60,694 nt of DNA from a bacterium. Its GTDB lineage: Bacteria; Acidobacteriota; Polarisedimenticolia; J045. A program made the position numbers and the translations under genes. The notes under the pieces are model-generated. The model searched no databases, had not been told where the DNA came from, and saw only the letters and a program-made list of their open reading frames with translations. Location: positions 1-60,694 of the forward strand of contig JAJFTU010000402.1 in assembly GCA_021372775.1 (NCBI GenBank), written 5' to 3'. Below, in pieces: positions 30,920-50,387 of the stretch (the stretch's first letter is position 1; every line of letters begins with the position of its first letter).

Positions 30920-33900
30920 TCAGTGAATCGTCGGTTTCCCAAGCCCCTGGCGCACGACATTCAACATTCGTGCGTAGAGCGCGTTCAGCTTCGCGCGCCG
31001 GTCGTCCGGCGAGAGCCGCGGGTCCTCGAACGCCTTGTTGACCTGCTGGCTCAGGGTCCTCAGTCGGGTCTCGGCGAACGCGATCCGGGCGGCCGTCAAC
31101 CGCGCGTCGCCGCCGTACTCGGCGTCCAGTTCCCGCGTCCGCGCCTTCGCCTTGGCGGTGTCCCCGCTCGCGCGATACTCGTCCACGCTCCGCAGCGCGC
31201 CCCGCAGCGCGTCCCGCGTCTCGTAGAACTCCTGGAACGACTGCGCGTCGGCCCGCGGGGTCTCCCGGTAGAAGGCACTCACGAACGGGGCTCGGGCCAG
31301 GCCGCCAGACGGCCGCTTGTCCTTCGCGATCCCGGTCGCGGAGAGCCCGGCATCGGTCGCGCCTTCGATCCCGCGCCCGAGGCCGGCGGTGTAGCCGTAG
31401 ACCAGGTGGTCGAACTTCGCGGGCGCCATCCTAAGCTTCGGCGCGATGAGCTTCGCGGCCTCGCTCGTCCAGCGCCCCGCCTGCAGCTCCGGGTCGAGGG
31501 TTGTATCGTAGGGGTTGACGATGCTCCGGCCGCGGAACGTGTCGTAGTTCACCGCCGCTTCTAACGCCGGGACGATGGCGGTCGGCGTGATCGACAGGAT
31601 CACGTTCCACGCGCTCGACGCGCCGCCCGGGAAGAGGCGGTCGGCCACCTTCTTGTCCTTCCCGCTCATGTAGTCCATCGCGGCTTCGAAGAACGAGCCG
31701 AAGATCATCCCGATCTCGAACGGCTTGGGGATGCGGGCCCAATCGTGCCCGTGCGCACGGCCAAGCGGCACGTGCCAATACGTGTTCCGCTCCCACGCCG
31801 GCAGCTCGTGGTAGTCCGGATCGGTGTGGTTGAGATACCAGAGCGCCAGCGACTGGAGCGTGATCCCGATGGTCGCCCGCCAGACGGCCCCGAGTGCTCG
31901 ACGCCGGCGCGGAGACCAATGACCCTTTGGCCCTTCCTTCATCGGAATGGGCGGTTGGCCGTCCCCGCCAAGTGCCTTCCCGCCCGGTCCTGGCGTGCCG
32001 CCTCCGGCCGCGGCATCCATCCCGCCGAACACCTCAGCGAGCCGTGCCCACCCCTGCACCCGCGCGTTGAAGAACGCCGTGTAGCGGTTGGCTTCCTTGC
32101 TATACCGGCCGCCCCGGGCGAAGTCGAGCGTGACGTCACGGGCCGCGAGCGCCGCGCGGGCGTAACCCTCGGCCGTCCGGCCCTCCTTCTCAACGGCCCC
32201 CATGAACTCGCCGAGCCGCGTGGCGACCTCCGTCGCTTCCGAGATCGCCCGCAGCAGTTCGATCGGGTTCCGGACGATGCTCGCGAGGAAGGCCCGGCGC
32301 TGGCTCTTCCCCATCCGCCGGAGTTCCTCCCGGATGCGGTTGCGGTCGGCCGAGACGAGCGCGGCGTTGCCGGCGCCGCTGTTCATGAACTGCTGGTAGA
32401 GTTCCCCGTTGCCCACGAACTCGAACAGCCCGCGCATTGAGTCGTAGCCGAGACGGAAGCCGTACCGCGAGTTGATGTAGGCCGTCCAGGTGTCGCGGAT
32501 GGGGTTCCGGGCTGCGAACGACACCGTCAGCGTGGCGCCGGCGCGCAGCAACCGGGCCGGGCGCATCAGGAGGTTGATGACGAGGTCGGAGTGCTTCGGC
32601 CCGATCGCGGTGATGGCGTCGTAGAGGGCCTGGTCGTTGGCGGCGTACCACTGCCGTTTACCGTCCTGGATGACCGTCACCAGGCCGCCCTTGCCGGTCG
32701 GCATGTAGAGCGGGGTGAAGACCACGGCCGATTCGTCCAGCGCCTCATCGAGGTTGTCCGGCAACTCCACGCCCGCATCCTCCAGCGCCTCACGGATCTG
32801 CGGCGTCAGGCGGGCAAGGTTGAACTTCGTGGCGGCCACGGGCGCGGGCACCTTCTCGAGGAACCGCCCGCCGCCCTCGGTCGATTCGGCCTGCGCGACC
32901 AGGGCCTGCATCGCCCGGTTCGCCTCGACCATGTTCACGAGCGTGTGTGTGTTCCGAATGATGCTCTCGAGCGGGTTGACGATGTCCCGCGTCGAGCCCT
33001 TGATCCGCTTGATGGGCACACTCCGGTTCGCGATCTTGCTCCCGGGGCCCCCACCGAACGCGCCCGAGACGGTGTCCTGCACGCGCTGGTAGGGGACGTA
33101 GTGCGGATTCAGCGCCCGCATCTGGACCGCCTGCTCCGGGGAGACCGCGCCGGCCTGCACCGCATAGTCGATGACGGCGTCCTGGAAGTCGTAGACCGCC
33201 TGGCGCGCCTCGTCGAACTCGGGCGACTGGAATGCGTCGAGGATCGCCTGGGCTTCGTCCGTCGTCATGCCGGCCTTCATCCCGCGCGCCGTCAGGTCGG
33301 CCACGCGGGACGCGACGAGGTAGGCGGCGAACTCGCGCGCCTGGTGCGCGACCGGCTTCAGGGCCGGCTCCAGTCCCTCGGAGAGCTTGGACCCGTCCGG
33401 CAGGCGCACGCCGTTCCGGAGGAAGCCGTCCGCCTTCATCGCCGCGCCCCGGGCGAGACGCGCGAGCGCGTAGCCGTTGCGGAGGATCTGTTCTGGCGTG
33501 CCGAGTTCCTTCACCATCCGACGGATCGGCGCGAGGTCGTCCACCCATGCGGTCTCAAACCGCAGCATCCAGTCGGCCTTCGGGTCAGGCTCCTGGCCGG
33601 TGAAGTCGATACGGGCCAGCCCCCTGGCGATCGAGTCCGCGCCGAGGAATCCGGTGATGAGCGTCCGAGCCTGCTCGATCGAGGCTTTCAACTCGGGCTC
33701 GACTTGCAGCGCGTCCTCGAAGGCGGCCAGGTAGAGCGGCGCCCGATTCTGGGCGGACGCCGGGTCGGACAAGTAGAGCCGCAGGAACTCGGCCTCGCCT
33801 TCCTTGCGCTTCTCGCCGGGGTCGGCGTCCAGTTCCAGGATGTCGGCGCCGAGCGCCTCAAGTTCTTCGGAGTAGGGCCGCCGCCCGCGCCGGAGGTTCA

Positions 33901-36900
33901 GGATCGTCGCGACGTGGTGCCCGAGCTCGTGGCCGATGACCTCGAGGTCGTTCGCCAGCTTCGTCCGCACCACCCGCGCCTTGTGCTTGTAGACCCCGAG
34001 GGCACGCTGGCTGAAATGTCCGGTCTTGATGGGGAGGCCGCCGAACGCCTCCGACAACCGGGCGACGATCTGATGTGGCGACAGGGGCTCCGTCGACGTC
34101 GGTGCCCCGGCGGCCGGCGCCGGGCGCTGGCGCATCGTGGAGACGTCATCGTCAGCCTCAACGTCTTCGCCCTGAGCCTTCGCCTTCCGCCGTTCCTCGG
34201 CGGCCCTGGTGCGCTCCAGCCGCTTGGATTCGGCCGCCTTGTCCTTTTCTTTCCCCTCCTCGCGGAGCTCGGCCTCGAGCTCGGCGATCCGGGCTTCTGC
34301 GGCCTTGGCGCGGCCCACCGTTTCAGGCGGCGAGGCGAGCACCTTGTCTGCCCGCTCGACCTTCCGCTGGACCTCCTGCCGGTCACGCTTGGCGTCCTCG
34401 AGCAGGGCCGGCAGCCCTTCGTAGGCGTCTACGAGTGAGGCGACGAGGTTCCGGCCGGCGCCGAACTCCTTACGGTCCTCGGCGCCGGCGAACACCTCGG
34501 CGACCTTGCGCCACTGGTCCTCGATCGGCGACTTCATGAACAGGACGACGTTGTCTTCCCGATACCCGCGGACGTGGCTCGCGCTCAGCTCCAGGCCGCG
34601 GACGTTGCCGATCGTCGTGTAGGTGACGTGGCGGCCGGCGTAGCCGACGTCCGTCTTGGTCACGGGCCACAAGGCATCGAAGATGGCGGCGTTGGCGTCT
34701 TTGCGGTCGGTGTAGGTCTTCCCGCCGACCGTCACCTCGAACGCCTCGCCGCGCAGCGACCGGAACTGTCCGGTCACCCACTCCCGGAGGCGCCCGATCT
34801 CGTCCTCGAGTGCCGCGTCTTCCCTCTGCCCGCTCGCCTTGTCGGCCTTCGCCCTGGCGATGGCGCGCTCGGCGGCCTGCGCCTGCGCCGAGAGCCGGGC
34901 GAACTTCGACCGCAGGTCGATCAACTCGATGGTGCGCGGGTCGTTCGTGGCGAGGGCCTGCGCTTCCTCGATCGAGAGCGTGGCTGGATCGTCGTCGCGG
35001 AACACCGTGGCGTCACCGCGCATGAAGTCGGTGATGTTCTTCTGTTTCCGGCCGAGCAGCCCATACAGCCACTCGTCGGTGGTGCCGTTGGTGACGTATC
35101 GGATGATTTCGACTTCCTTGTAGACGCCGTTCCCCTGCCGGATGATGCGGCCGTGCCGCTGCCGGATGTCACCCGGGCGCATCGCCCGTGGGGCGTCGAA
35201 TTCCACCTCGAGGCCGAGTCGGGCCTGGATGTTCATGCCCGTGCCGCCCTTGTCCGTCGAGGCCATCAGCACGCGCACGTCGCCACGCCGGGCCGCCTCG
35301 AAGAGCGCCAGGCGCTCGGCCGCGTTGCGGGCCTGGTGGATGAATGCGATCTCGCGGGCCGGAACGCCCTTCTTCACGAGGGCTGCCTTGATAGCCTCGT
35401 AGAGGTTGAACGCGCCGGTCTCCTGAGTCGCCCACTCGTCTTCGTCGCCTTCGATGACTTCGTCCTCGACCCCGAGCGAATCCCCCTCGGTCGAATCCTC
35501 CGCCTTGACGTCCCGGAGGAAGTCGAGCGGGCCCGGGTCCTTCGGCGTGCCGACGTCGCAGAAGACGAGGGCGACGCCCTTGTTCTTCTTCTCCGCCCGC
35601 CAGAACTTCGCGATCCGGTCGGTGGCGTCCTGGAGCCGTGAGCCCTTGTAGTCGGTCGCACGGTTCCCGAGCACCAGGCGGGGGTCGACCGCCGCCAGGC
35701 GCGCGTCGTTCATGATGGTCAGGATGTTGTCGAGCTTCCCGGTCGGCTCGCCCGTGAGCGGGTCCGGCCGCGCCGGCGCGATGTACTCGCGCGTCTGCCG
35801 GTCGACGTGCGGAGGCATGGCCTTCACGTTGGCCAGGCGGTCGGAGAACCAGCGTTTCAACTGCGGGTAGAGTGGGTGCGCCGGCGTCTTGGCGACGTCG
35901 ATCTTCCCGCCCTTCATCGTCGGGAGCTGGAGGTACGGCATGTCCTCCCACCCGACGTAGTCCATGACCTGCGAGACCATCCGATAGAGCAGGTTCAGGT
36001 TCCGGTAGTCGCGGAGGCGGAGGACTTCCTGGTAGCTGCCGTCGGGCCGCTGCTCGGTCGTCGGCAGCGCCGAAGCGAACATGGTGTACCAGTTGTCGAA
36101 GTTCTCGACCCCGTAGTCCCTGAGCGCCTGCGGCTGGAGATACCGCTGCATCGTGAAGATTTCCGCGATGCTGTTCATGATTGGCGTCGCGGTCGCCAGC
36201 ACGAGGTTGCGGTGGCTCGACTGCTCGTTGATGTCCTGCACCTTCACGAAGAGGTCGAGCGCCCGGTCGGATTCGGATCGGCTGAGGCCCCGGATGTTGT
36301 CCATCTTCGAGAAGTAATAGAGGTTCTTGAAGGCGTGGGCCTCGTCGACGAACAGAGCATCGACGCCCAACTGTTCCCACGTCAGCGCGTCGTCCTTCTT
36401 CTTCTCGAGCGATCCCTTCTTCTTGGCGATCTTGTCTTTGATGCGGTCGACGGCCGCGGCGAGTTGCTTTGTGCTCACCGATTTGCCGTCCTCGGCCTTC
36501 GCCTTCAGGTAGGCATCGGTGAGCTCCCGCTCCCACTGCTCGAGCGTCTCGACCAGGCGGGCCGTCGACACCCGGAGCAAGCCGAACGACGAGTGCGGCA
36601 CGAGGACCATGTCCCAATCGCCGAACGCGATCCGGGCCATCGCCTCCTGGCGCTTGTCGGCGCCGAGGTCCTTCTCGTCGAACGCCAGCACCTTGGCCGC
36701 GGGGTAGGCCCGCATGATGTCTTCCCGCCACTGGCCGAGCAGGTGCGTGGGGACCGTGATGAGCGGCTTCCGGGCCCGCCCGGTGCGCCGCATCTCCATC
36801 GCCGTCGCGATCATCGCGAACGTCTTGCCGGCGCCGACCTCGTGCGCGAAGAGCGTGTTCCCCGTGGCGAGCGTGCGCCAGATCACCGCCCGCTGGTGCG

Positions 36901-39900
36901 GGTGCAGGGCGAACGGCAGCGCCAGGCCGGGCAGTGTCAGGTGTGACCCGTCGAAGATCCGGGCCACCGTGCGGTTGAAGCGGGTGTTGAACGTCGACAG
37001 GAGCCGTTGCTGGACGTCCTCGTGCTCCATCACCCACTGCATCCACTGGGATCGGATCTCGTCGAGGTTGCCGCGGGCCGCCAACGTCGCCTTCTCGTCG
37101 CGGACGTAGTGCCGGTTGTCCTTGTCGCCCTCCATCGTGCCGAGGTCCGGCGTCTTCAGGTTCAGCGCGTCGTTGAGCAGGTCGAGGAACCCGTAGGTCT
37201 TCTCCTTGGCCGGACCGTAGGTGACGGCGAGCGCGTGCTGAGTGGAGGCGCGCGTCGCGGTGTGGCTGTTGCCGGACCCGACGGTGACCGACCAGGTCAC
37301 GTAACTCTCGGCGCCCTGGAGCTTCGCGGTGACGGCGTCGTCGCCGAGGCCGAGGGCCTGCGCGACGAAGGCGGCCAGGTCATCCTCGGGCACCCAATGC
37401 GAGCCGAGGGTGATCGAGACGGCGCCGCCGTAAAGGTCGTCGGCGGTCTTGTCGGCCGGCTGCACCGCCCGGAGCGCGTCGACGTTCACCTGGAACTTGG
37501 GGTCGTCTTTGGCCGCGGCCTCGGCGTCGGCCAGCTTCGTCTTGACGTCCCCGCTCAGGTACTCGTCGGCCAGGACGGTGGACCCGTCGGGCTGCTCGAA
37601 GATCCGGCCGAGGTGGGCGAGCTCCGCTTTCAGGGTGTCGATCGGCTGGCCAGAGATCCGCGCCATGTAGGGCCAGTCGATCCGCGTCTTCGTGCCGACC
37701 GAAGCCATCAGGGCGTCCACCGCGGAGTCGGCGTGGTCAATCTCGCGCTCAGCCCGGATGGTTCGCTTCGTGAAGATGTCGTGCTTGGCGACGAACTCGT
37801 GCGTCACGCGCAGCCGTTGCTCGCCGTTCTTCAGCGTCACGACCGCGGCCGTCGGCTTCAGGATCTCGAGCCCGCGGAGGTTGTGAGACTCGGGATCGAT
37901 GTCGAACAGGCGCCGGTTGATCTTGTCGTTCAGTCGCCCGTGGGCCTTGACGAAGCCGTCGTAGGCTTTGCCGAGGGCCCGCTGTGCCTTCGCGATCTCG
38001 GCGTCGGTCGACTCCGTGTTCTCCATCGCGGCCACGGTCGCGCGCAGCGCGTCGCGGACCCCGATCATGCCGGCCACGCGCTTGACCGCGGCCGAGTCGA
38101 CGACCTCCGACTTCGTCTTCTGGTTCTTCCGGGTCGGGGTGTGGTCGACGATCTGGCCGTCGCTCGTGACACGGTCGATGCGGCCCTTGGCCGGGCTTAC
38201 GCGCAGCTCGTTGACCTTGTAGCTGTCCTTGTCGGCCATGCGCGGCGCCGGCGCCGGTGCCGTGGCGCTCGTCGTCGCGGGCACGTAGGACCCGGGGGGC
38301 AGGAGTGTGGCGAGGGCCGTGCGCAAGTCTCCGGTGACGTCGTCGCTCTTGGCGGTGACGGTATATTCCCCGGACCCGTACATCGTGCCTTCGGTGCTCT
38401 CCTTCCCGAGGACCAGGTCGGGATGCGCCGTGTACCACGCGGAGCGGTAGACGTTGTTCTCGCGAGACTTCCGATTGCGGCCCCACCCGCTCGAGGATGT
38501 CGTCGAGAGGTCCTCGGCCTTCGGCGCCTCGATGAAGAGGTCCGCGTTGCGCGCGACCTTCTCATCCGGCATGAACCGCTGGAGCACAACCAGGTCGGTG
38601 ACGACCTCCGTCTTCGCGCTCTTGTCGAACGCGCTGTTCGGCAGGCGGACGGCGCCGACAAAGTGCGCCCGCTCCATCAGGTAGCGCCGGAAGCCCGTCG
38701 CCTCGGCTCCGTCCATGGTGTAGCGGGACGTCAGGAAGACGATGAGCCCGCCCGGGCGCACGTGCTGCATCGCCTTCGCGAAGAAGTAATTGTGCAGGGG
38801 CTTCGTGAGGAACTTCTGCGCGCCGGCAAACTCCGGGTCCTCGACGCCCGTGTCCGCGAAGGGCACGTTGGAGATGACGAGGTCCTGTGTGCCCCGTGCG
38901 ACTCGGGCGTCCTGGTAGCCGACCGCGTGCACGCGAGCCCTTGGGTAGAGCGCCTGTGCGATGGCGGCCGTCATCGGCTCGAGCTCGACGGCGGAGAGCG
39001 TGGAGGCGGCGCGCACATCGCCGGGCATGAGGCCGAAGGCGTGACCCGTGCCGACGGCCGGCTCGAGCACGCGCCCGCCCGTGAATCCGGCCGCCGCGAG
39101 CACGTCCCACACGGGCCGATATAGGTCGTAGGTGAAATGGGCGTTGCGCGTCGAGTGGAACGCGGAGTCGCGCTCGGCCTCCGACAGCAGCGACCGGAGG
39201 TCCTGCCACACGGCGGTCTGGTTCGCGCTCCAGCCGTAGTCGGGCGTGGTCGTCCGCGGGTCGACGTACTCGGCGAGGTCGGACGCGCCCCATCCGACGT
39301 AGCGGGCGAGCACGTCCTGCTCGTCGGGCGTCGCGTACCGCTTCTCGGTCTGGAGAGTCTTGACGAGGCGGATCGCCTCGACGTTGCCGCGCGCCCGCTC
39401 GAGTGGGCCGCGCTTGATGATGGCCTGAACGCGCTCAGGAGTGAGTTGGTAGTCGGGAGCCTTTACGCCTGGGTCGTGGGTGTCTCCGGCGGGGGATAGA
39501 GCCACTCGTTCCGGTAGCGCGTCCACGCTTCCGCGTCGGTCAGCTTCGGATCCCTCGCCTGCGCCAGCAGGCTGCTGTACTCCGTTCGGTGCCACGCGGC
39601 CCGAATCGCTCGGTCGAGTGCCAACGGCCCCTGGCTCTCCAGTTGCTTCGACAGGTTCGGCAGGAACCGCTGCCAATACGCCTTCGCGTCTAGCTCCCGC
39701 GGGCCGAGGGGTTCCGCCTCCACGCTCGGCGGGTTGTCCGGGTCGTACACGCCCACTATCTCTGACATTGGCGGCCTCCCCTTCTGAGGATACCGTAGGG
39801 CCACCTTCCGCCGGAGTCAAGGCCGGCGCGGCGGTCGCAAGAGAATTGCCCTCGAGGAGGTCGTTCGCCCAATCCATTTCGCCGAGGTACCACGGACTCC

Positions 39901-42900
39901 CCATCTCCGAACCGACCCTGTGTGAGTAGTCGATGACCGATGAGATGTAGGCCCGCAGGGTATCCTCGGTGATCGTCTTCGGACGAGCCGGCCGCACCAG
40001 CGCCGTTTTGCCCTCGAGGGCGTCGGCCGCCTTCGTGAGCGCGGCGGCGGCGTCTTTCAAGGCGGAGGCGGCCGGATGAGCAGCCGCCGGCGCCGTCGGC
40101 TCGCCGGCTCTCTCTTTTTCCCGGCGTTCCCGTTCCGAGGTGATGTCGGCCTGGATCGCCTCGATGCGGCTCTTCTCTTCCGCCGTGAGGGTCGGGTCCT
40201 CAAGACCGTCGGTGACGTTGCGCGCCAACGTGTCGAACGCTTTGTCGTCCAACTGGCCGAGGCCGTTCACGCCCCAATACGGGGCCTTGGTGCGATGCAC
40301 TCGGTCTGCGATGTTGATCGCGGTGTCGGCCGCTTCCCGCCGCTTGGCCTTTTCCTTGTCCGACAACTCGGGTGCGGGGGCCGGCTTGTCCTCCGCCGCG
40401 ATCTTGGCGGTCGCCATCTCCAGCCAACCCCGCCAGTTTTCGGCCTCGTGAGCGTTGAGCCTCGGGAGCGCCTCCGACAGGTCATCCCGAAATTGGCGCA
40501 GCTCCTTGCCCGACAAGTGCTCCACGCCGTTGCCGGCGTGCTCGTTGATGACGGCCTCCGCGCGTGCGCGGGCCGATAGTTCCGCGGTGCTCTGCGGTCC
40601 GGTCGCTTGCGAGTGGGGAACTTCACCGACCGGTCTCTTCTGTCCCCCACCGACATACTCGCCTTCGGGCGTCACCTGGTTGGTCGCGGCCGGCGCCTGC
40701 CAACCCTTCGCGGGTTCGGCCGGCTGCGCCCGCCGAGCCTCGATGCGCTTGACGGCCGCCAGCGTCTCGGTCTTGTCAGGCGCGGTCGAGTGGCTGCGCG
40801 GACGTGCGCCGGTAAGCGGGTTGCCTTCCTTGTCGCTCTCGACGACCTCGACGCTCCAGTCGTGGTCAGCGGTCGCGGGGTGGTAGGCGAGGACCTTGTC
40901 CCACTTGCCCCAATAGTCGCTGTAGACGACCGCCCCTGGCCGATACACCTCGGCGCGGAGATCAGCGGGCGTGACCTTCTTCGGCTTCTTCGGGGCCTTC
41001 ACAGTGGCTTTCAGGCTCGCCGCCACCGCGGGGGACTTCGCCGAGGCTTCTTCCTCGGCCTCGAGCTTCGCCAGGTGCTGCGGGTAGTCGTCGGCCAGCT
41101 TCGCCATCTTCTCCATGAAGGTGTGCGAGCCGACCTGGTCCGGCGTGTATTTCTTCGACTCGTTCCATGCCTGGCGGTACTGCCGGGAGAACTCGTCGTA
41201 AGTCAGCGTCGGTGCCGCTGGCGCGCCTGTGACTGCGAGCTCGGGCACGGCCTCTTTCGGCCGCGGTTTCGACACGCCGCGTTCCTTCTTCCGCTTTCCG
41301 GCCTCGGCGTCGGCCTCGGCCTCGGTCGCCCCGAATCCGACAGAGGCGCCAATCTCCCGGTCGCCGACCTGGCCGAGGCCGGCCGTCTTGAGTGCCGTGC
41401 TCACCGCGGCCTCGACCCGATCGCGCAGGCCCGTCAGGTCGCCACCGGTTCCCGGCTGCAGGGCGACGTTGAGCGCGAACTCATCGCCGCCGACGCGCGC
41501 GACGACGTCGCCAGGACGAAGGGTCTGCCGTAGCGCGTCAGCGACGACCTGCAGCGCCCGGTCGCCTTCGGAGTGGCCGAGGGTGTCGTTGACCGCCTTG
41601 AAGTTGTCGAGGTCGATGCGGGCCCACGCCCGGCCCGGTTCCTGTTTCTTCGCCCTGCGGTTGAGCCCGTTCATGTTGAACAGGTTGGTCAGCGGGTCAC
41701 GCTCGGCATCGTCGAAGAAGCCCTTGCCGACGTCGGCCTGTCCCTCGGCGACCGTGGCCTGCAGGCGCGCCAGAGCGTCGATCCCTCTCTGCACCCTGGC
41801 AGGGACCGGTGCGGTCTCCTGCGGCATCGTGACCGCGCCCGGAGCCGCAGCCGGCGCGGGTACCGGCGCGGCCGTCGCTTCAGCAGAAGCGGGTGTCGTC
41901 ACGGTCGGGGCCGGCGGCGCGGGCGCGACCTGTTGGGCCACCGCCGGCGCTGAGCCGACGACCGATACGCGCACATCGGGCGACGGCTGCGCGGGCCGCT
42001 TGACGCTGAACTGGTCGGTCGTCGGGTTGTACTCGACCGGCGACGGGCCTTCCGTTGGCAACTCGGGCGCGGGTGTCTTGACCGGCGCCGCCTGAATCTC
42101 GACCGCCCGGCGCTGCGCGGCCACCTTCGCGGTGATGTCGGCCTCGCTCAGCCCGCGGGCTTTCAACTCGCCGAGCGCAACTTGGGCCTCCGTCGACGTC
42201 GCCAGCTTCCTCGAGGGTGTGTTCGCGATCTCGCGTACGAGCATGTCGATCGTCGGCGGGGCTTGCGGGTTCCCGATGTCGAGCACGGCGCCAGGCGTCG
42301 AGGGCTTTGGCACCGGGGCCTGCCACTGAATCGTCTGAGGCGTGCGGGTGGTGTCCAACTCGCCGAACGGAATCGTCTTCGCGCCGGGAATCTCGCCGGG
42401 ACCGTAGAGCCGCGAGAGAATCGTGCCGACCTGAATCGCCTTCTTGGTTCCCGCCGCCACCTGAGCGACGCGCTTCGCGCCGCCGGCCGCGGCGATCGTG
42501 GCCGCGAGGTTGGAGACGAACCGTTGCTCCTCGGGCGACGCACCGGACAACTCGGCGGCCTTGCCCGCGCCCGCGCCCGCGAGATAACTCGTGCCGAGCG
42601 CCAGCAGGGTTTCCGGTAGGGCGAGCACGAGGCCCGCAGCCACGGCCGGAGTCGCAGCCTTGCCGGTGCCCTCCATCATGTCGGACCAGGCGTTGAGCGC
42701 CTTCTTGTCGACCTCGGGCCGACGGTCCTGGACGTACAACTGCCCCGTCCGGCTCCTGGCCATGACCGTTCCGGGCGTGCCCGGCGCCGGCGTGGGAGCC
42801 ATCGCGATTTCTCCCGACACCTTCGCGCCTTGCACGAACTGCTGCACGCCTCTCGCGGGGGTCGAAATAATGTCGTCGATGGTCTGAGAGGGCGGCCCCT

Positions 42901-43531
42901 GCACGTACAGTTGACCCGTGCGGCTTCGCGCCATGACCGTACCGGGCGGGAGCGCAGGCGGCGCCAGCGGAACGCCGCCACTGGACGGCGCGTGCATCAC
43001 CGCGAGCCTTTCCGGCAGGGGCGTGTCGTTGCTGAAGAGCGTCCGCGCTTCGGCGATGGGGTCCGACTTGCCAAACAGGGTCCGCGCCTCCGCGAGCGGA
43101 TCGCCGGCAGGCTCGGGCGCCAACCGCCCCTCGATCTTCTCGACGTAGTCCTGTGTCTCCGTGAAGGGCGGAACGCCGCCATGCCGCTCGACGGCCTCGG
43201 GGCCGGCGTTGTACGCCGCGAGGGCCAGGCGCCGGTTGCCGCCGAACCGGTCCAGCATCTGCCGCAGGTAGAGCACGCCGCCCTTGATGTTGTCGTCCGG
43301 GTCGTTGGGGTCGACTCCCAGGTCACGCGCCGTACCTGGCATCAACTGCATGGACCCGACCGCGCCCTTCGGCGACCGGGCACGGGGGTTCCCACCGGAC
43401 TCGGTCTGAATCACCGCCCGCACGAGATCCACGGGCACACCGTAGGCCGCCGCGTATCGGTCGGCGGGGTCGGTCGGCGCCCCAAGAGTCGCGCGGGCGT
43501 CACGAACGGGATCGGCGGTCTCGGGTTCCAT
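30920..43531 (-). CDS. giant multi-domain (polyvalent) virion/ejection protein, 4203 aa
   Basis: Uninterrupted ATG-initiated ORF carrying SLT, GGDEF, N6-adenine MTase, SF2 helicase and HELGHH motifs. Sits where P22 has its ejection-protein genes. Confidence 0.85.
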   Translation of the reverse strand: MEPETADPVRDARATLGAPTDPADRYAAAYGVPVDLVRAVIQTESGGNPRARSPKGAVGSMQLMPGTARDLGVDPNDPDDNIKGGVLYLRQMLDRFGGNRRLALAAYNAGPEAVERHGGVPPFTETQDYVEKIEGRLAPEPAGDPLAEARTLFGKSDPIAEARTLFSNDTPLPERLAVMHAPSSGGVPLAPPALPPGTVMARSRTGQLYVQGPPSQTIDDIISTPARGVQQFVQGAKVSGEIAMAPTPAPGTPGTVMARSRTGQLYVQDRRPEVDKKALNAWSDMMEGTGKAATPAVAAGLVLALPETLLALGTSYLAGAGAGKAAELSGASPEEQRFVSNLAATIAAAGGAKRVAQVAAGTKKAIQVGTILSRLYGPGEIPGAKTIPFGELDTTRTPQTIQWQAPVPKPSTPGAVLDIGNPQAPPTIDMLVREIANTPSRKLATSTEAQVALGELKARGLSEADITAKVAAQRRAVEIQAAPVKTPAPELPTEGPSPVEYNPTTDQFSVKRPAQPSPDVRVSVVGSAPAVAQQVAPAPPAPTVTTPASAEATAAPVPAPAAAPGAVTMPQETAPVPARVQRGIDALARLQATVAEGQADVGKGFFDDAERDPLTNLFNMNGLNRRAKKQEPGRAWARIDLDNFKAVNDTLGHSEGDRALQVVADALRQTLRPGDVVARVGGDEFALNVALQPGTGGDLTGLRDRVEAAVSTALKTAGLGQVGDREIGASVGFGATEAEADAEAGKRKKERGVSKPRPKEAVPELAVTGAPAAPTLTYDEFSRQYRQAWNESKKYTPDQVGSHTFMEKMAKLADDYPQHLAKLEAEEEASAKSPAVAASLKATVKAPKKPKKVTPADLRAEVYRPGAVVYSDYWGKWDKVLAYHPATADHDWSVEVVESDKEGNPLTGARPRSHSTAPDKTETLAAVKRIEARRAQPAEPAKGWQAPAATNQVTPEGEYVGGGQKRPVGEVPHSQATGPQSTAELSARARAEAVINEHAGNGVEHLSGKELRQFRDDLSEALPRLNAHEAENWRGWLEMATAKIAAEDKPAPAPELSDKEKAKRREAADTAINIADRVHRTKAPYWGVNGLGQLDDKAFDTLARNVTDGLEDPTLTAEEKSRIEAIQADITSERERREKERAGEPTAPAAAHPAASALKDAAAALTKAADALEGKTALVRPARPKTITEDTLRAYISSVIDYSHRVGSEMGSPWYLGEMDWANDLLEGNSLATAAPALTPAEGGPTVSSEGEAANVRDSGRVRPGQPAERGGGTPRPAGARREGVLAAVPAEPVEATGEPGAVGTRPSDSGRVAPNGVQQPAGAGEGSEADRRGSVDALPERVALSPAGDTHDPGVKAPDYQLTPERVQAIIKRGPLERARGNVEAIRLVKTLQTEKRYATPDEQDVLARYVGWGASDLAEYVDPRTTTPDYGWSANQTAVWQDLRSLLSEAERDSAFHSTRNAHFTYDLYRPVWDVLAAAGFTGGRVLEPAVGTGHAFGLMPGDVRAASTLSAVELEPMTAAIAQALYPRARVHAVGYQDARVARGTQDLVISNVPFADTGVEDPEFAGAQKFLTKPLHNYFFAKAMQHVRPGGLIVFLTSRYTMDGAEATGFRRYLMERAHFVGAVRLPNSAFDKSAKTEVVTDLVVLQRFMPDEKVARNADLFIEAPKAEDLSTTSSSGWGRNRKSRENNVYRSAWYTAHPDLVLGKESTEGTMYGSGEYTVTAKSDDVTGDLRTALATLLPPGSYVPATTSATAPAPAPRMADKDSYKVNELRVSPAKGRIDRVTSDGQIVDHTPTRKNQKTKSEVVDSAAVKRVAGMIGVRDALRATVAAMENTESTDAEIAKAQRALGKAYDGFVKAHGRLNDKINRRLFDIDPESHNLRGLEILKPTAAVVTLKNGEQRLRVTHEFVAKHDIFTKRTIRAEREIDHADSAVDALMASVGTKTRIDWPYMARISGQPIDTLKAELAHLGRIFEQPDGSTVLADEYLSGDVKTKLADAEAAAKDDPKFQVNVDALRAVQPADKTADDLYGGAVSITLGSHWVPEDDLAAFVAQALGLGDDAVTAKLQGAESYVTWSVTVGSGNSHTATRASTQHALAVTYGPAKEKTYGFLDLLNDALNLKTPDLGTMEGDKDNRHYVRDEKATLAARGNLDEIRSQWMQWVMEHEDVQQRLLSTFNTRFNRTVARIFDGSHLTLPGLALPFALHPHQRAVIWRTLATGNTLFAHEVGAGKTFAMIATAMEMRRTGRARKPLITVPTHLLGQWREDIMRAYPAAKVLAFDEKDLGADKRQEAMARIAFGDWDMVLVPHSSFGLLRVSTARLVETLEQWERELTDAYLKAKAEDGKSVSTKQLAAAVDRIKDKIAKKKGSLEKKKDDALTWEQLGVDALFVDEAHAFKNLYYFSKMDNIRGLSRSESDRALDLFVKVQDINEQSSHRNLVLATATPIMNSIAEIFTMQRYLQPQALRDYGVENFDNWYTMFASALPTTEQRPDGSYQEVLRLRDYRNLNLLYRMVSQVMDYVGWEDMPYLQLPTMKGGKIDVAKTPAHPLYPQLKRWFSDRLANVKAMPPHVDRQTREYIAPARPDPLTGEPTGKLDNILTIMNDARLAAVDPRLVLGNRATDYKGSRLQDATDRIAKFWRAEKKNKGVALVFCDVGTPKDPGPLDFLRDVKAEDSTEGDSLGVEDEVIEGDEDEWATQETGAFNLYEAIKAALVKKGVPAREIAFIHQARNAAERLALFEAARRGDVRVLMASTDKGGTGMNIQARLGLEVEFDAPRAMRPGDIRQRHGRIIRQGNGVYKEVEIIRYVTNGTTDEWLYGLLGRKQKNITDFMRGDATVFRDDDPATLSIEEAQALATNDPRTIELIDLRSKFARLSAQAQAAERAIARAKADKASGQREDAALEDEIGRLREWVTGQFRSLRGEAFEVTVGGKTYTDRKDANAAIFDALWPVTKTDVGYAGRHVTYTTIGNVRGLELSASHVRGYREDNVVLFMKSPIEDQWRKVAEVFAGAEDRKEFGAGRNLVASLVDAYEGLPALLEDAKRDRQEVQRKVERADKVLASPPETVGRAKAAEARIAELEAELREEGKEKDKAAESKRLERTRAAEERRKAKAQGEDVEADDDVSTMRQRPAPAAGAPTSTEPLSPHQIVARLSEAFGGLPIKTGHFSQRALGVYKHKARVVRTKLANDLEVIGHELGHHVATILNLRRGRRPYSEELEALGADILELDADPGEKRKEGEAEFLRLYLSDPASAQNRAPLYLAAFEDALQVEPELKASIEQARTLITGFLGADSIARGLARIDFTGQEPDPKADWMLRFETAWVDDLAPIRRMVKELGTPEQILRNGYALARLARGAAMKADGFLRNGVRLPDGSKLSEGLEPALKPVAHQAREFAAYLVASRVADLTARGMKAGMTTDEAQAILDAFQSPEFDEARQAVYDFQDAVIDYAVQAGAVSPEQAVQMRALNPHYVPYQRVQDTVSGAFGGGPGSKIANRSVPIKRIKGSTRDIVNPLESIIRNTHTLVNMVEANRAMQALVAQAESTEGGGRFLEKVPAPVAATKFNLARLTPQIREALEDAGVELPDNLDEALDESAVVFTPLYMPTGKGGLVTVIQDGKRQWYAANDQALYDAITAIGPKHSDLVINLLMRPARLLRAGATLTVSFAARNPIRDTWTAYINSRYGFRLGYDSMRGLFEFVGNGELYQQFMNSGAGNAALVSADRNRIREELRRMGKSQRRAFLASIVRNPIELLRAISEATEVATRLGEFMGAVEKEGRTAEGYARAALAARDVTLDFARGGRYSKEANRYTAFFNARVQGWARLAEVFGGMDAAAGGGTPGPGGKALGGDGQPPIPMKEGPKGHWSPRRRRALGAVWRATIGITLQSLALWYLNHTDPDYHELPAWERNTYWHVPLGRAHGHDWARIPKPFEIGMIFGSFFEAAMDYMSGKDKKVADRLFPGGASSAWNVILSITPTAIVPALEAAVNYDTFRGRSIVNPYDTTLDPELQAGRWTSEAAKLIAPKLRMAPAKFDHLVYGYTAGLGRGIEGATDAGLSATGIAKDKRPSGGLARAPFVSAFYRETPRADAQSFQEFYETRDALRGALRSVDEYRASGDTAKAKARTRELDAEYGGDARLTAARIAFAETRLRTLSQQVNKAFEDPRLSPDDRRAKLNALYARMLNVVRQGLGKPTIH
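33914..33931 (-). other. HExxH zincin motif within the giant protein
   Basis: LEVIGHELGHHVATIL. Confidence 0.5.
35129..36909 (-). other. SF2 (SNF2/DEAH-like) helicase domain of the giant protein
   Basis: HPHQ, HEVGAGKT (36818-36850), FVDEAHAFKN (36329-36352), LVLATATP, STDKGGTGMN, QRHGRIIRQGN (35129-35165). Confidence 0.8.
38570..39460 (-). other. N6-adenine DNA methyltransferase domain of the giant protein
   Basis: Motif I VLEPAVGTGHAF (about 39043-39075) and motif IV ISNVPFAD (about 38858-38869). Together with the helicase this resembles the P1 DarB architecture (from memory). Confidence 0.75.
39463..39768 (-). CDS. 101-aa ORF embedded out of frame inside the giant ORF
   Basis: GGGAGG-6 nt-ATG. 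By hand count about 86% G/C at codon position 3 in this frame versus about 50% in the giant frame over the same bases. Globular-looking sequence MSEIVGVYDPDNPP...WTRYRNEWLYPPPETPTTQA. Confidence 0.5.
   Translation of the reverse strand: MSEIVGVYDPDNPPSVEAEPLGPRELDAKAYWQRFLPNLSKQLESQGPLALDRAIRAAWHRTEYSSLLAQARDPKLTDAEAWTRYRNEWLYPPPETPTTQA
39792..39820 (-). promoter_or_regulatory. sigma70-like promoter candidate for the embedded ORF
   Basis: Minus strand reads TTGACT (39820-39815)-17 nt-TACGGT (39797-39792), about 24 nt upstream of ATG 39768. Confidence 0.3.
41318..41698 (-). other. GGDEF (diguanylate cyclase) domain of the giant protein
   Basis: DPLTNLFNMNGL...ARIDLDNFKAVNDTLGHSEGDRAL...RPGDVVARVGGDEFAL...SVGFG. 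GGDEF codons at 41477-41491. RxxD lies 5 residues upstream. Confidence 0.8.
43136..43453 (-). other. lytic transglycosylase (SLT) domain of the giant protein
   Basis: VIQTESGGNPRARSPKGAVGSMQLMPGTA...LAAYNAGPEAV. Confidence 0.8.
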
Positions 43532-43534
43532 TAG

Positions 43535-44860
43535 CTACCTCAGCGCGTCGTACTGAGCGAGCAACTGCTGTCCCTGAACCTTGAGCGCCGCCTGTTTCGC
43601 GGGGTCCCGCTCACCCTTGACCTGGTCCGCCAGCGCGCGAATCTGTTGCTCGAGGCGCGCCTTCTGCGGGCTGGCCGTCGTGGTCGACGTGTTCGCGGCT
43701 GCTGGCATCGATGCCGTCGGCTTGGCGCCAGCGTTCTGCGACGGAGGCTCCCACGCCGGCGTGTTCACGCCCTTGACCTTCCAGCCGGCCTCAGCGAGCG
43801 ACCCGACGGTCTCCTGGTTGGTCTGTGCCCGATAGCTGTTCTCGATCTCGAGCAGGCGGCCCTGGAACTCGTCGTCGTCGATCTCTTCACCCTTCCCGAC
43901 CCACTTCCTCGAGTCGCCGTCCCACTTGTAGGCGGCCTTCAGCTTGTCGATGCGCGCGTCGCGGAAGCGGAGCGCCGCGCCCTTCTGGGCCTCGGAGAGT
44001 CCAGCCTGACCGCCGAGCCGGTCGTTGCGTTCCTGACTCTGCCGCTCGAGTTCGAGGTTGTGCCGCTTCTGCTCGGCCCTGGACTCCGCCGTGTCAGCCA
44101 GGCGGCGCCGCTCTTCCGGCGTCATGGCGAGCGTGGCCATCCGGTCGGGCGCCTTCTCGTCGTACTGCTCGGGCACCAGCGCCAACACCGTCTGTGGCGC
44201 CCCCTGCGCTCTCAGGATGCCTCGGTAGGTGCTCCACAACTCCGGCGTCTTCGCGCCGGACATGATCTGACCGGACAACGCCAGCCAGTCCTGTTCGGTC
44301 TTCGGCCGCTTTTCGAGATGCGTCAGCATCTCGTTCTGCCAGGTGGTGTACTCCGACGCCTTCATGCCGATGCCACGGAGGAAGTCCACGGCCTGCCGCG
44401 CTTTCGACTGACCGCTCGCGTCGGGCTCGTCCCACACGTCAGGAAGCATGGCGGCCAGGCGCGGCTCGTACTTCTGGAGGTAGCCCTTCGCCGCGGTGAG
44501 CGTGCCCTGGTCCTTGACGCCCTGAACCACCTGCAGGCCCTGCTCGAGCTGCTGCCGGTAGACGTCGTTCTCGGCCTTGAGCGTGTCGAGGTGCGTCTTG
44601 CGCTGCGCGGCGATGGCAGACTCGAAGCGGAGTGCGGCCGCGCCGTGACCCGATTGCTGCAGCGTGTTCGACACGGCTTCCGGGTCGTCCGGGTGCTGCG
44701 CCATCGCCTCGCGGAGCGCCGCGTCGTCGCCAGCGGCCTGCACGCGAGCCTGTGTCTCGAGCTGACGGTCCTTCAACGCCATCACGTCCCCGAGTTTCTG
44801 GAGGACGTTCGGCGCCTGCGGCGCCCGAGCCGCAAGCGGAATGTTGGGGTCGATGCCCAT
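43535..44860 (-). CDS. internal virion / ejection protein candidate (441 aa)
   Basis: Q/A/E-rich helical protein. The stop lies 3 nt before the giant ORF ATG. Confidence 0.5.
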   Translation of the reverse strand: MGIDPNIPLAARAPQAPNVLQKLGDVMALKDRQLETQARVQAAGDDAALREAMAQHPDDPEAVSNTLQQSGHGAAALRFESAIAAQRKTHLDTLKAENDVYRQQLEQGLQVVQGVKDQGTLTAAKGYLQKYEPRLAAMLPDVWDEPDASGQSKARQAVDFLRGIGMKASEYTTWQNEMLTHLEKRPKTEQDWLALSGQIMSGAKTPELWSTYRGILRAQGAPQTVLALVPEQYDEKAPDRMATLAMTPEERRRLADTAESRAEQKRHNLELERQSQERNDRLGGQAGLSEAQKGAALRFRDARIDKLKAAYKWDGDSRKWVGKGEEIDDDEFQGRLLEIENSYRAQTNQETVGSLAEAGWKVKGVNTPAWEPPSQNAGAKPTASMPAAANTSTTTASPQKARLEQQIRALADQVKGERDPAKQAALKVQGQQLLAQYDALR

Positions 44861-44878
44861 AACTGGCTCCTGGCGCGA

Positions 44879-45634
44879 TCAGCGGCCGAAGATCCGACTC
44901 TCGACGTTGTTGACGTCGTTCCGAACGTAGCTGCTGCCCGTGTTCGGCGCGAGGCCCTGGTTCTGCCAGTACTTCATCAGCGCGGCGTCGGCGATGCTCA
45001 TGCCCGCGCCAGCGAGGCCGCTCCCCCAGGCGTTCCCGGCCCCGACCACGCCGGCCGCCCCCGCGTTGCCCGCGCCCGTGATGAGGTCCGATCCGTCGTT
45101 GCCGAAGTCTCCCGCGGCCGCCGCCTGCCCCGCCGCGGCCGACTGGCCCTGGCCCGATAGCGCCATCAGGCGCTGGAACTGTTTGTTCTGGTTGTTCTCG
45201 AATGTGCTGAAGGCGGTCCCGTACTGGTCCTTCGCGCGGCCGTAGACCTCGTTGTACTTCGTGTCGGCGTAGTCCTGCGCCCACTTCGTCAGGTCCTTCA
45301 TCGCGCCGCCGGTCAGCAGCGTGCCGCCGGCCGCGGCGGACCGCTGCAGCGCCTTGATGCCTTCGTCGAAGCTGAACTGGAATCCCGGGTCCTTCCGGGC
45401 CTGTTCAGCCGTCGGCGCCACGAAGGGCGTCGTCCACGGCTGCATCAGGCCGCTGGCCATCACCGACGCGAGCGGGAACTGCCCGCCGCCCGTGAAGGTG
45501 CCTGGAACGAAGTCGCCGCCCGTGTCGATGGCCGGCGGCGTCGTCGGCGTCTCGGTCAGGGTCGGGGGCTGGCCGCCCACGGTGTACTGCGGCCCGTTCA
45601 CTCCGACCGGCGCGTTGTCATCGAACCACGACAT
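44879..45634 (-). CDS. internal virion protein candidate (251 aa)
   Basis: G/A/Q-rich. Position between the neck genes and the giant ORF. Confidence 0.5.
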   Translation of the reverse strand: MSWFDDNAPVGVNGPQYTVGGQPPTLTETPTTPPAIDTGGDFVPGTFTGGGQFPLASVMASGLMQPWTTPFVAPTAEQARKDPGFQFSFDEGIKALQRSAAAGGTLLTGGAMKDLTKWAQDYADTKYNEVYGRAKDQYGTAFSTFENNQNKQFQRLMALSGQGQSAAAGQAAAAGDFGNDGSDLITGAGNAGAAGVVGAGNAWGSGLAGAGMSIADAALMKYWQNQGLAPNTGSSYVRNDVNNVESRIFGR

Positions 45635-45642
45635 AAGGCCCC

Positions 45643-46107
45643 CTACTGAACGAGCGTCGCGCCCTTGGCGACGTAGTGGCTCGCGACGCGCCGCGGCACG
45701 GCCTGCTGGCTGCCGTCAGGCGCCCGCAACAGGACCATCTCGATGTCGGCCGGCTCTCCGCCGTTCTGCCTGGCGACGGTACGCGTCGACCGCATGGTGT
45801 CCATGAACGGGCCGGGTCTCGGGGCCCGCGTCGTCGACGTGCCACCGTCCGTGATCTGCTTCGCCGCCGGCGCCGGCCGGAAGCCCATGAGCGCCGAGAG
45901 CGTCTGATTCGCCTGGTTCCCAGACGTCACCCACGGCTGGAGGTCGGCCCGGCGCGTGGTGAACATCTCGCGCTGGAGCGCCAGCGCGTCACTCGCGGAT
46001 TTCTGCTGAATGTCAGCCGCCTCGCCGGCGGAGTGCGCCGCGATGGCCGCTCCGCCGACGGACCCGGCGGGACCGATGATGGCTGGCAGGAAGGGGGCAA
46101 CCGGCAT
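45643..46107 (-). CDS. internal virion protein candidate (154 aa)
   Basis: Trimmed to ATG 46107. Hydrophobic N-terminus MPVAPFLPAIIGPAGSVGGAAIAA. Confidence 0.45.
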   Translation of the reverse strand: MPVAPFLPAIIGPAGSVGGAAIAAHSAGEAADIQQKSASDALALQREMFTTRRADLQPWVTSGNQANQTLSALMGFRPAPAAKQITDGGTSTTRAPRPGPFMDTMRSTRTVARQNGGEPADIEMVLLRAPDGSQQAVPRRVASHYVAKGATLVQ

Positions 46108-46109
46108 AG

Positions 46110-46487
46110 CTACCTCACGATCGGAAGCACGAACGATTCCGCAGCGATGGGAACGCCGCCGCACCGAATCAGCAATTCTCGGATCTTCAAGTTGTCGGCG
46201 CCGGTCCACACGCGCTCGTACCCGAACGCCTTGACCGCTCTGCGCATCGCCAACCAGAGGCGAACCGGCACAACCGGGTCCGCCTGGAACTCCGGATCGA
46301 CCTCGATCCCCTCCGCGTGCAGTTGCAGGACCGCAGCCCACTGCGCCACGATTCGCCCATCGACCTCGACCACCGGCAGACGCACGCGCTCGGGATGCGT
46401 CCTGAGCGCGTCGAGCAAGGGACCGATCGAGGACCCCGCGAGGCGGTCCCACTCGTCCACGGGCAATTCGCGGCTGGTCAGCGCCAC
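46110..46487 (-). CDS. hypothetical protein (125 aa)
   Basis: GTG 46487, 1 nt after the upstream TGA. The upstream part of the track ORF is shadow-like. Confidence 0.4.
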   Translation of the reverse strand: MALTSRELPVDEWDRLAGSSIGPLLDALRTHPERVRLPVVEVDGRIVAQWAAVLQLHAEGIEVDPEFQADPVVPVRLWLAMRRAVKAFGYERVWTGADNLKIRELLIRCGGVPIAAESFVLPIVR

Positions 46488-49658: not shown

Positions 49659-50387
49659 TCAGTCTCCCGTGAAGATGTCGAACCGGTCGGGTCGATTCAG
49701 CAGCGCGACGTCGACGCGGACCGGCTCGCTGTGAATGTTCGACCGCTTGATGTCGGCCAGCGCATCGGCTGCGTCCTGTTTCAGTTGCCCGTCGACCGGC
49801 CGGCCGAAGGGGCGGCAGCACTCGACGGCGAGGTTCAACCGAATAGCCTTCTCGTACCCGGGTGGCAGGGTCAGCTCGGTCACCAGCGAGGGCACGCTGC
49901 CAAGCGGAGCCGGCAGGTACAACACCGGCCGGATCGTCACGTCGGTTGGTACGGGCCAGAAGTAGAGCGTGCCGACCGCCGCGTCAGCGTTGTAGTAGAA
50001 CCGTCGGGGGAACGTGTTGGGCAGGAGTTTCATGCGCTCTTCCTGCCACTGCGCCTTCGTGTAGGGGTCGAGTTCTCGCTCGAACGGCGTCACCGTGCCG
50101 GGGAACTGGACCGCGACCTTGTCGATGAACACCGGCCGTGTCGGCGTCACGAAGTTGGGCGCGGGCGTGACCGAGGACGGTCCGACCGTGTAGCCGTCCT
50201 GGTTCGCCACGAACGTGAAGAGCGTCCGGGTGTAGTTGTAGATGGTCAACTCCTGGGTGCGCCAGGCGTCGAGCATCGAGTTGAACCGGCGGAGAACCTT
50301 GTAGGCGTCCGAATCGCTCACCTGTTGTCCGCCGCCGTGGCAACCGATCTCATCGAGCGTGTCGGTGATGAGCTCGAGGGCTTTCAC
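49659..50387 (-). CDS. P22 gp4-like head-to-tail adaptor
   Basis: N-terminus ALELITDTLDEIG...SDSDAYKVLRRFNSMLDAWRTQ parallels P22 gp4 LVRAALRKLGV...QDAVDDLEAMMAEW. GTGA start overlap. Confidence 0.55.
   Translation of the reverse strand: MKALELITDTLDEIGCHGGGQQVSDSDAYKVLRRFNSMLDAWRTQELTIYNYTRTLFTFVANQDGYTVGPSSVTPAPNFVTPTRPVFIDKVAVQFPGTVTPFERELDPYTKAQWQEERMKLLPNTFPRRFYYNADAAVGTLYFWPVPTDVTIRPVLYLPAPLGSVPSLVTELTLPPGYEKAIRLNLAVECCRPFGRPVDGQLKQDAADALADIKRSNIHSEPVRVDVALLNRPDRFDIFTGD

Follow-up and report, generated by a model that had tools for sequence, protein, structure and literature searches.

A conserved GGDEF domain within a giant, putatively ejected polyvalent protein of a predicted podovirus-like phage

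Does a GGDEF domain, a classic bacterial module for making the second messenger cyclic di-GMP (c-di-GMP), keep its catalytic function when it is built into a giant phage protein, and if so, in which cell and at which stage of infection would it act? We addressed this question for contig JAJFTU010000402.1 of GenBank assembly GCA_021372775.1, a stretch of 60,694 nucleotides that we refer to as the window. An original prediction, made from the letters alone, had placed a canonical and apparently active GGDEF domain at 41318-41698, within a phage structural protein that would deliver a nucleotide cyclase at infection. On the minus strand, an open reading frame (ORF) at window 30920-43531 encodes 4,203 amino acids (aa), of which aa 612-757 form a GGDEF diguanylate-cyclase domain. 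This domain is real, intact and rare, and it is under selection; the function predicted for it is plausible. The features that carry this result are the following, where the clade is the group of phage relatives described below.

30920..43531, minus strand: giant polyvalent protein gene, 4,203 aa, with all Pfam and PHROG domains in one frame
41261..41761, minus strand: GGDEF module, aa 591-757, consisting of a helix (aa 591-609) and the complete fold and ending in the clade signature KRKKERGVSKPR
41507..41518, minus strand: RPGD, the RxxD inhibitory-site (I-site) motif, aa 672-675, with R and D invariant in the 13-sequence clade alignment
41477..41491, minus strand: GGDEF motif, aa 681-685, with G-D-E-F invariant across the clade and the first G nearly so

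The window positions 41318-41698 correspond to aa 612-738 of the giant protein. The peptide quoted for them in the original prediction is indeed encoded there, on the minus strand, but the span given was too short, ending ~20 residues before the end of the domain. Translation of the plus strand yielded an unrelated frame with a stop and no GGDEF and was rejected, which places the feature on the minus strand. The domain runs to ~aa 757 (window 41261), through its last helix, which carries K748 and R751; ahead of the domain, from ~aa 591 (window 41761), lies a predicted helix. The GGDEF profile scores are far above chance: PF00990 matched aa 610-716 with E = 1.2e-19 and 71.1 bits against the Pfam cut-off of 23.8, and TIGR00254 matched with E = 3.6e-22 and 78.8 bits against the NCBIfam cut-off of 37.4. 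Upon modeling aa 590-760 with AlphaFold2 from an input alignment of 50 sequences, we obtained a mean predicted local distance difference test (pLDDT) score of 92.3 and a predicted template modeling (pTM) score of 0.85, with all GGDEF core strands and helices as well as the N-terminal helix in place (model residues 2-20, pLDDT 74-83). Both the model and its Foldseek comparison with the PDB returned the palm-like beta-alpha-alpha-beta-beta-alpha-beta fold. Foldseek listed 99 matches at E <= 1e-3, the top 50 of which were all GGDEF-domain structures, mostly diguanylate cyclases, and the best of them were SadC, SiaD, DgcB, WspR and PleD, all with probability 1.00; a sequence search of the PDB led to the same families. 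That this is a folded GGDEF domain under selection we regard as virtually certain.

We compared aa 590-1200 exhaustively, by phmmer, with 1.84 billion representative proteins and found that the 13 best matches are giant proteins of 1,338-2,911 aa, in which the GGDEF domain lies 400-1,200 residues from the N-terminus. We aligned the present domain with 12 of these 13 giants (n = 13; the N-terminally truncated P0132 was excluded), and the clade domains proved 44-60% identical to the present one, with a mean column identity of 56% and 26 invariant columns. A C-terminal signature, RK.[AE]R[GA][VIL]S.[PT][RK], is common to all 13 and missing from the 257 other proteins fetched (270 in total), and the readable contigs of the clade have a guanine-plus-cytosine (GC) content of 67-70%. 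Judged from sequence, the domain is best described as a member of a small phage-specific clade, and this tight, high-GC group, marked by a C-terminal signature of its own, seems not to have been recognised earlier. We rejected the idea that a bacterial gene was recently captured: in an earlier word-indexed search the matches were all ordinary bacterial GGDEF proteins (none above 300 aa or 81 bits), but in the exhaustive search the 13 giant phage proteins outrank the bacterial matches, and P0004, the nearest relative among small bacterial proteins, is encoded in a normal signalling neighbourhood. No close relative of the GGDEF region turned up in pattern scans of IMG/VR or of GTDB genomes. The original prediction had called the find unusual, and its rarity is borne out, with ~13 clade representatives among the 1.84 billion proteins and only 9 GGDEF folds in BFVD. 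It is not new, as Iyer et al. (2017) had described such domains in polyvalent proteins. These comparisons also bear on the possibility that the domain is a functionless passenger, shuffled in from a bacterial gene. Cassettes are shuffled freely in polyvalent proteins, and the domain is missing from the closest DarB-type relative, but we consider such a passenger highly improbable: the clade is phage-specific and has its own signature, the domain is intact in 14 divergent proteins of several architectures, and the best bacterial relatives score below the phage ones, which already disfavours the idea.

At its metal and guanine positions, the active site is populated as in canonical enzymes. Reading along the domain, we found D640-L-D642, K645, N648 and D657, then R672-P-G-D675, the five residues V-V-A-R679-V and G681-G-D-E-F685. 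The D-x-D context, the intact GGDEF signature and the RxxD motif exactly five residues upstream of it, all of which the original prediction had pointed out, are thus present. In PleD numbering (Chan et al. 2004), D640 would be the metal ligand D327 and K645 would be K332, N648 and D657 would be N335 and D344 of guanine recognition, R679 would be R366, D683 and E684 would be the GG[D/E]EF acidic pair E370 and E371, and K748 would be the phosphate-binding K442, with R751 presumably standing in place of the partner arginine R446. When aligned with SadC, every catalytic position is identical up to the SadC GGEEF. In the clade alignment, D640, K645, N648, D657, R679, D683, E684 and K748 are all invariant, so that the invariant columns include every listed functional residue as well as R672 and D675 of the I-site; the first Gly of GGDEF is near-invariant, reading HGDEF in one member. 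The author of the original prediction had conceded that an alignment might uncover substitutions at substrate- or metal-binding residues. At the metal, guanine and GGDEF positions it uncovered none, but R751 of the last helix lies one residue out of register: K748 and R751 are invariant in the clade with the spacing K-x-x-R-G versus the canonical K-x-x-G-R. On this residue pattern, we think it reasonably likely that the GGDEF domain is catalytically active. As both the guanine ligands and the I-site are conserved, the sequence argues for c-di-GMP as the probable product, and against a mere receptor function, a different nucleotide as product or depletion of GTP.

The same residues allowed us to weigh two other roles. 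The domain could be a nucleotide-binding sensor or regulator, which would bind c-di-GMP (I-site) or GTP (active site) and thereby tie the behaviour of the giant protein to the signalling state of the host, with little or no synthesis. This would fit the invariant RxxD and the lack of an obvious dimerisation device, and many bacterial GGDEF domains do act as receptors. Receptor GGDEFs, however, usually lose GG[DE]EF or the metal or base ligands, whereas here all catalytic residues are invariant at ~50% identity; moreover, the clade alignment shows no conservation of the arginine of the secondary I-site (R390 in PleD). A sensor role is hence, in our view, quite unlikely. Still more improbable, we think, is another product (3',3'-cyclic GMP-AMP (cGAMP), c-di-AMP or linear pppGpG) or hydrolysis of nucleoside triphosphates, with the product as a decoy or jammer of cyclic-oligonucleotide immunity. 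There are precedents, as Hypr-GGDEF enzymes make cGAMP, the YybT GGDEF domain is an ATPase, and the related palm enzymes mCpol/OptS make 2',3'-c-di-AMP for Panoptes (PMC12657218), and the C-terminal phosphate-binding helix of the clade is altered. The guanine pair N648/D657 is nevertheless canonical and invariant at a place where Hypr enzymes have Ser (D344 position), and the c-di-GMP-binding I-site is conserved.

The other modules of the giant protein are listed here in order from the N-terminus.

43175..43462, minus strand: SLT lytic transglycosylase, aa 24-119 (PF01464, E = 6.8e-25)
42572..42658, minus strand: hydrophobic segment AVAAGLVLALPETLLALGT, aa 292-320 (Kyte-Doolittle, 19-residue window, peak 1.73)
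41780..41995, minus strand: Ala/Pro-rich linker, aa 513-584, immediately upstream of the GGDEF module, with >=50% A+P in 30-residue windows
40724..41218, minus strand: module without a Pfam family, aa 772-936, directly after the GGDEF module
34154..40282, minus strand: DarB-like anti-restriction module, aa 1084-3126 (phrog_10089, 1278 bits)
33917..33931, minus strand: HELGH (HExxH) motif, aa 3201-3205, within the conserved C-terminal scaffold, read from the sequence
31334..31822, minus strand: LPD38, aa 3904-4066 (PF18857, E = 2.8e-36)

With SLT, GGDEF, methylase and SNF2 helicase in one 4,203-aa chain and an LPD domain at its end, the gene product has the makings of a polyvalent protein, in the order SLT, GGDEF, DarB-like methylase/helicase, HExxH and LPD38. 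The GGDEF module lies, as predicted, between a peptidoglycan hydrolase and a DarB-like module, namely between the SLT domain and the phrog_10089 match. The SLT region also matches phrog_342, 'internal virion protein with endolysin domain', with E = 1.1e-22. The DarB-like module combines an Eco57I-like methylase with a SNF2/ResIII superfamily 2 (SF2) helicase, to which PF00176, PF04851, PF00271 and PF07669 match, and the whole matches the DarB profile. The giant protein has three hydrophobic peaks; the strongest of them, which is also the sole one in the N-terminal half (aa 292-320), lies between SLT and GGDEF and may be a membrane-spanning segment between a periplasmic SLT and a cytoplasmic payload. 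Glycine-zipper-like stretches occur in relatives from the clade, one of which (P0125) matches PF05433, 'Glycine zipper 2TM'. The module that follows the GGDEF domain (aa 772-936) recurs at the C-terminus of P0133 (1,326 aa, 45% identity) and as the stand-alone protein P0138 (162 aa, 42% identity). Relaxed Pfam scans of aa 121-610, 741-1377 and 2871-3900 matched no family. The last of these covers the HELGH motif and gave no hidden Markov model (HMM) support for a peptidase around aa 3201; on its motif, the region could be a zincin-type processing metallopeptidase, as expected in polyvalent proteins.

The C-terminal scaffold of ~1,100 aa, with LPD38 inside, is common to the large proteins of many podoviruses. 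By tblastn, the last ~1,100 residues are 23-28% identical to large proteins of Vibrio, Bacillus, Pelagibacter and Escherichia podoviruses. The proteins sharing this scaffold are encoded at the end of structural modules, and one is annotated as 'putative virion structural protein', another as 'RelA/SpoT'. The latter belongs to Synechococcus phage MinM2 (H69; OQ594354.1 23377-24225), shares the LPD38-containing scaffold and would, by its annotation, be a second nucleotide-messenger synthetase on the same virion scaffold. Dozens of other ORFs of 100-705 aa overlap the giant gene in the plus and the other minus frames (31431-43534; for example, 37007-39124 on the plus strand, 705 aa), and we rejected these as genes, since stop-poor frames are expected in DNA of 68% GC.

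The position of the gene supports a role in the virus particle. Upstream on the same strand lie portal, major capsid, adaptor and head-closure genes and two 'DNA ejection' ORFs, and the ATG of the giant gene follows the stop of the ORF before it by 3 nucleotides.

44879-45634 and 45643-46452, minus strand: ejection ORFs (phrog_598, 'DNA ejection')
43535-44860, minus strand: ejection-cluster ORF with no family match; these three upstream ORFs together span 43535..46452

The giant gene is thus the last of a podovirus ejection-protein cluster and lies within the structural module, at the ejection or internal virion gene position to which the original prediction had assigned it; its LPD38 domain is also found in gp47, a virion protein of phage phi24B. 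From the structural-module position and the phi24B gp47 analogy, we infer on good grounds that the giant protein is probably packaged and ejected, and among the steps considered for this protein we hold this one with some confidence.

Giant proteins with a GGDEF domain come in several architectures. P0199 combines GGDEF, ddrB-ParB, RadC and LPD38, and its C-terminal 1,100 residues are common with the giant protein. P0122 contains a region like the C-terminal extension of polyvalent portal proteins and a ParB-like stretch, and P0129 has an N-terminal M15 peptidase, its gene lying behind an SU10-type adaptor gene or module. A profile-guided scan of IMG/VR gave 106 GGDEF-encoding stretches in 2.9 million contigs, of which we kept 80 loci. 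GGDEF in an ORF of >1,400 aa was found at only five of these loci, on four distinct contigs. One of them (L064; IMGVR_UViG_3300045391_002935, 5204-12457) encodes a 2,418-aa protein with GGDEF, ART-PolyVal and LPD38, and another (L016) joins GGDEF to ddrB-ParB. In the L064 domain, RxxD is lost and His replaces Arg before GGDEF, indicating weaker conservation among those polyvalent GGDEF domains that do not belong to the tight clade. A clade member (L014/L015; IMGVR_UViG_3300012532_000064) carries the same 1,421-aa ORF at 4377-8639 (plus strand) and 8450-12712 (minus strand); this contig resembles an assembly artefact of the fold-back (inverted duplication) type, and the turn may cut the ORF short. 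Most other IMG/VR loci were rejected as comparable cases: L067 and L072 (~1,100 aa) start like host-type sensor or transporter proteins, and the rest are <1,000 aa. The closest DarB-type relative (L005, from an Acidobacteria metagenome-assembled genome) is 49% identical over aa 1313-3072, and GGDEF is absent from the corresponding 845 residues upstream, for which reason we rejected the domain as a fixed part of the DarB-type lineage. Because GGDEF recurs with ddrB-ParB, RadC and ART upstream of LPD38 and is absent from L005, it behaves as a mobile, interchangeable payload cassette, kept intact by selection wherever it lands.

Smaller relatives point to another setting. The best tblastn matches in sequenced phages are stand-alone proteins of ~155 aa in Pseudomonas Yuavirus and Bordetella Vojvodinavirus, one of which, MP1412 gp43, can be aligned over its full length to the clade profile (hhalign probability 99.6%, 41% identity).

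L001 7935-8896: MP1412 gp43-gp44
L002 7944-9535: CN1 gp42-gp44

Like the present domain, Yuavirus MP1412 gp43 and Vojvodinavirus CN1 gp42 and LK3 have a compact GGDEF with the K-x-E-R-x-x-S C-terminal motif, but they are encoded by non-structural genes, read SGDEF or AGDEF, lack the canonical RxxD spacing and have no alpha3-beta4 insert. In both genera, KlcA/anti-restriction genes directly adjoin the GGDEF gene. This repeated anti-restriction neighbourhood, with KlcA there and the DarB-like module downstream here, is the sole contextual hint on the role of the domain, and it points to early counter-defence or takeover. The only experimental observation that we found in the literature concerns LK3, whose lysogens form hyper-biofilms, an effect that the authors associate with the phage GGDEF gene without direct proof (PMC8471281).

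These stand-alone proteins are also the ground for considering that the domain acts in the producer cell, late in infection or in lysogens, where the still cytoplasmic giant protein would raise c-di-GMP before packaging and alter motility, matrix, receptors or the timing of lysis, an effect of the kind suggested for other phages with non-structural GGDEF genes. In addition to the non-structural nature of the Yuavirus and Vojvodinavirus homologues and the hyper-biofilm of LK3 lysogens, such a role would suit a temperate phage and would spare the domain any translocation. Late structural genes, on the other hand, are normally silent in lysogens, the fusion to a virion scaffold in at least four architectures is hard to explain if delivery is irrelevant, and the neighbouring DarB-type module is, as known from P1 DarB, a classic injected effector. 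We consider it unlikely that action in the producer cell is what the domain is for, and note that such action would be compatible with delivery at infection.

We propose instead that the domain is delivered, through the following steps. The C-terminal, LPD38-containing scaffold would package the giant protein in the capsid, as its gene position and the phi24B gp47 case suggest, and the protein would be ejected with the DNA at infection, its N-terminal SLT domain cutting the peptidoglycan. The membrane may be crossed at the hydrophobic segment (aa 292-320), and the downstream modules would reach the cytoplasm, possibly after cleavage by the HExxH region at Ala/Pro-rich linkers. There, two GGDEF modules would pair, perhaps via the preceding helix, and convert 2 GTP into c-di-GMP, as the presence and conservation of the residues suggest, with the conserved RxxD I-site capping the level reached. 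Such an early c-di-GMP pulse may serve host takeover or counter-defence, alongside the adjacent DarB-like module. For the mechanism as a whole, from packaging through ejection to synthesis of c-di-GMP on entry, we see the chances as evenly balanced, and that the domain acts on entry, not late, we put at or slightly below an even chance. A stronger version, in which the injected cyclase floods the cell with c-di-GMP within minutes, before phage gene expression, as an offensive weapon, we find quite unlikely. Such a flood could, as an unsupported extension of the idea, jam or decoy cyclic-(oligo)nucleotide immunity, for example by filling the effector or sensor sites of systems like CBASS (cyclic-oligonucleotide-based anti-phage signalling system) or by holding Panoptes-type guard effectors ligand-bound and silent, and the injected cyclase would then act in concert with the DarB module on the same polypeptide.

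Several observations count against delivery of an active cyclase. Compared with canonical enzymes, helix alpha-1 lacks ~8-10 residues and the last helix has lost the loop in front of it, due to which the Pfam PF00990 match is confined to profile positions 2-113 of 161. Of the phosphate-binding basic residues, the second is shifted in register, and HMMER alignments to PA0575 shift by one residue. Diguanylate cyclases work only as dimers, and no recognised dimerisation or sensor domain stands beside the GGDEF module, only the predicted helix of ~20 residues. Few copies per virion are expected, and entry of the N-proximal GGDEF part into the cytoplasm, where the GTP is, is a step that we infer. 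No c-di-GMP riboswitch was found in the window with Rfam, and in the literature we found no experimental study of any GGDEF domain of the clade or of a polyvalent protein.

The rest of the window is consistent with a phage. It has a GC content of 65-71% throughout (68% for the phage) and encodes, apart from the structural module, the following.

7947-8720, minus strand: sigma-70 region-4 protein
12967-16693, minus strand: SbcC/SbcD-like nuclease pair
19817-22049, plus strand: helix-turn-helix (HTH) regulator and tyrosine integrase

As an integrase and an HTH regulator are encoded, we classify the element, from its gene content, as a predicted temperate podovirus-like phage. Megablast of 20 kb against 50,697 phage records gave no match, indicating a phage without a close sequenced relative; look-ups of the exact giant and capsid protein sequences returned no record, and neither tRNA genes nor Rfam families were found in the window. 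DNA-methyltransferase-like ORFs lie at 50384-51463 and 9707-10831 (both on the minus strand), one of them inside the head-tail structural module; together with the methylase of the giant protein, they suggest a heavy investment in anti-restriction. Furthermore, a 426-aa ORF at 26793-28073 (minus strand) matches phrog_8480 (lysophospholipase L1-like esterase, E = 2.8e-38) and can be likened, by description, to gp84, the NanS-type esterase that decorates the phi24B capsid.

Destruction and sequestration of immune nucleotide signals are known from phages, but phages are not known to inject a second-messenger synthase; should the weapon reading hold, it would be the first demonstrated case of a virus particle injecting a nucleotide-signal synthase, and anti-defence of a new class. 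The clade offers a clean test case, as it provides a module of ~165 residues with all catalytic residues conserved on a protein that is very probably packaged. If the domain is active, phages could rewrite the c-di-GMP state of the cell (motility, matrix, surface receptors and development) at entry, or use the messenger against immunity, and the activity would give a prediction made in 2017 an experimental footing. If it is inactive, an apparently perfect GGDEF can be retained for a non-catalytic role.

Among known systems, the canonical cyclases PleD, WspR, SadC, SiaD and DgcB share the fold, the metal and base ligands, the phosphate-binding lysine, GG[DE]EF and the RxxD spacing with the present domain. 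The latter differs in having no receiver, PAS, GAF or membrane sensor, in being embedded in a 4,203-aa predicted virion protein, in its C-terminal motif RKxERGVSxPR (AKxxGRN in canonical cyclases), and in its short alpha-1 and deleted loop. DarB of phage P1 and DarB-like proteins likewise contain a methylase and helicase module of >2,000 aa, and are packaged in the capsid and injected to protect the incoming DNA, but P1 DarB is not known to have GGDEF, SLT or LPD38. The phi24B protein gp47 (2,811 aa; LPD5, LPD1, LPD38 and a metallopeptidase) is abundant in purified virions by proteomics, is invisible in the reconstruction and was proposed to be an ejection protein (2026 preprint). Like the present protein, it is very large, has LPD38 and is encoded at the end of a structural module, and its metallopeptidase has a possible counterpart in the HELGH motif; it differs in carrying LPD5 and LPD1 instead of GGDEF and DarB, and the homology is read from the common Pfam LPD38 family alone. 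Polyvalent proteins bearing RelA/SpoT place a nucleotide-messenger synthetase on a similar scaffold (PMC5512222), a payload that differs from GGDEF in its Pol-beta nucleotidyltransferase (NTase) fold and its product (p)ppGpp, and work on Panoptes showed that hosts monitor cyclic-nucleotide pools, so that counter-moves by phages are expected (PMC12657218). The closest precedent in kind was described from sequence in 2017 by Iyer, Burroughs, Anand, de Souza and Aravind in J Bacteriol, who found phage polyvalent proteins in which GGDEF accompanies SWI2/SNF2 and methylase domains, called the domain 'not very widespread' and proposed that it uses or jams cyclic-nucleotide signals (PMC5512222). Their example, the Acetonema longum prophage protein WP_004096050.1 (GGDEF, SWI2/SNF2, methylase, metallopeptidase and ART; PMC5512222), is, like the present one, a giant with GGDEF, SWI2/SNF2 and methylase domains and predicted delivery at invasion, and its metallopeptidase may have a counterpart in the HELGH motif here; by its description, it differs in coming from a Firmicute prophage and having an ART domain, where the present protein comes from a 68% GC phage and has an N-terminal SLT and a C-terminal LPD38. 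Since Iyer et al. described GGDEF in giant proteins and proposed the same two roles, the kind has been known since 2017, and the present protein is a new combination of SLT, GGDEF, DarB and LPD38.

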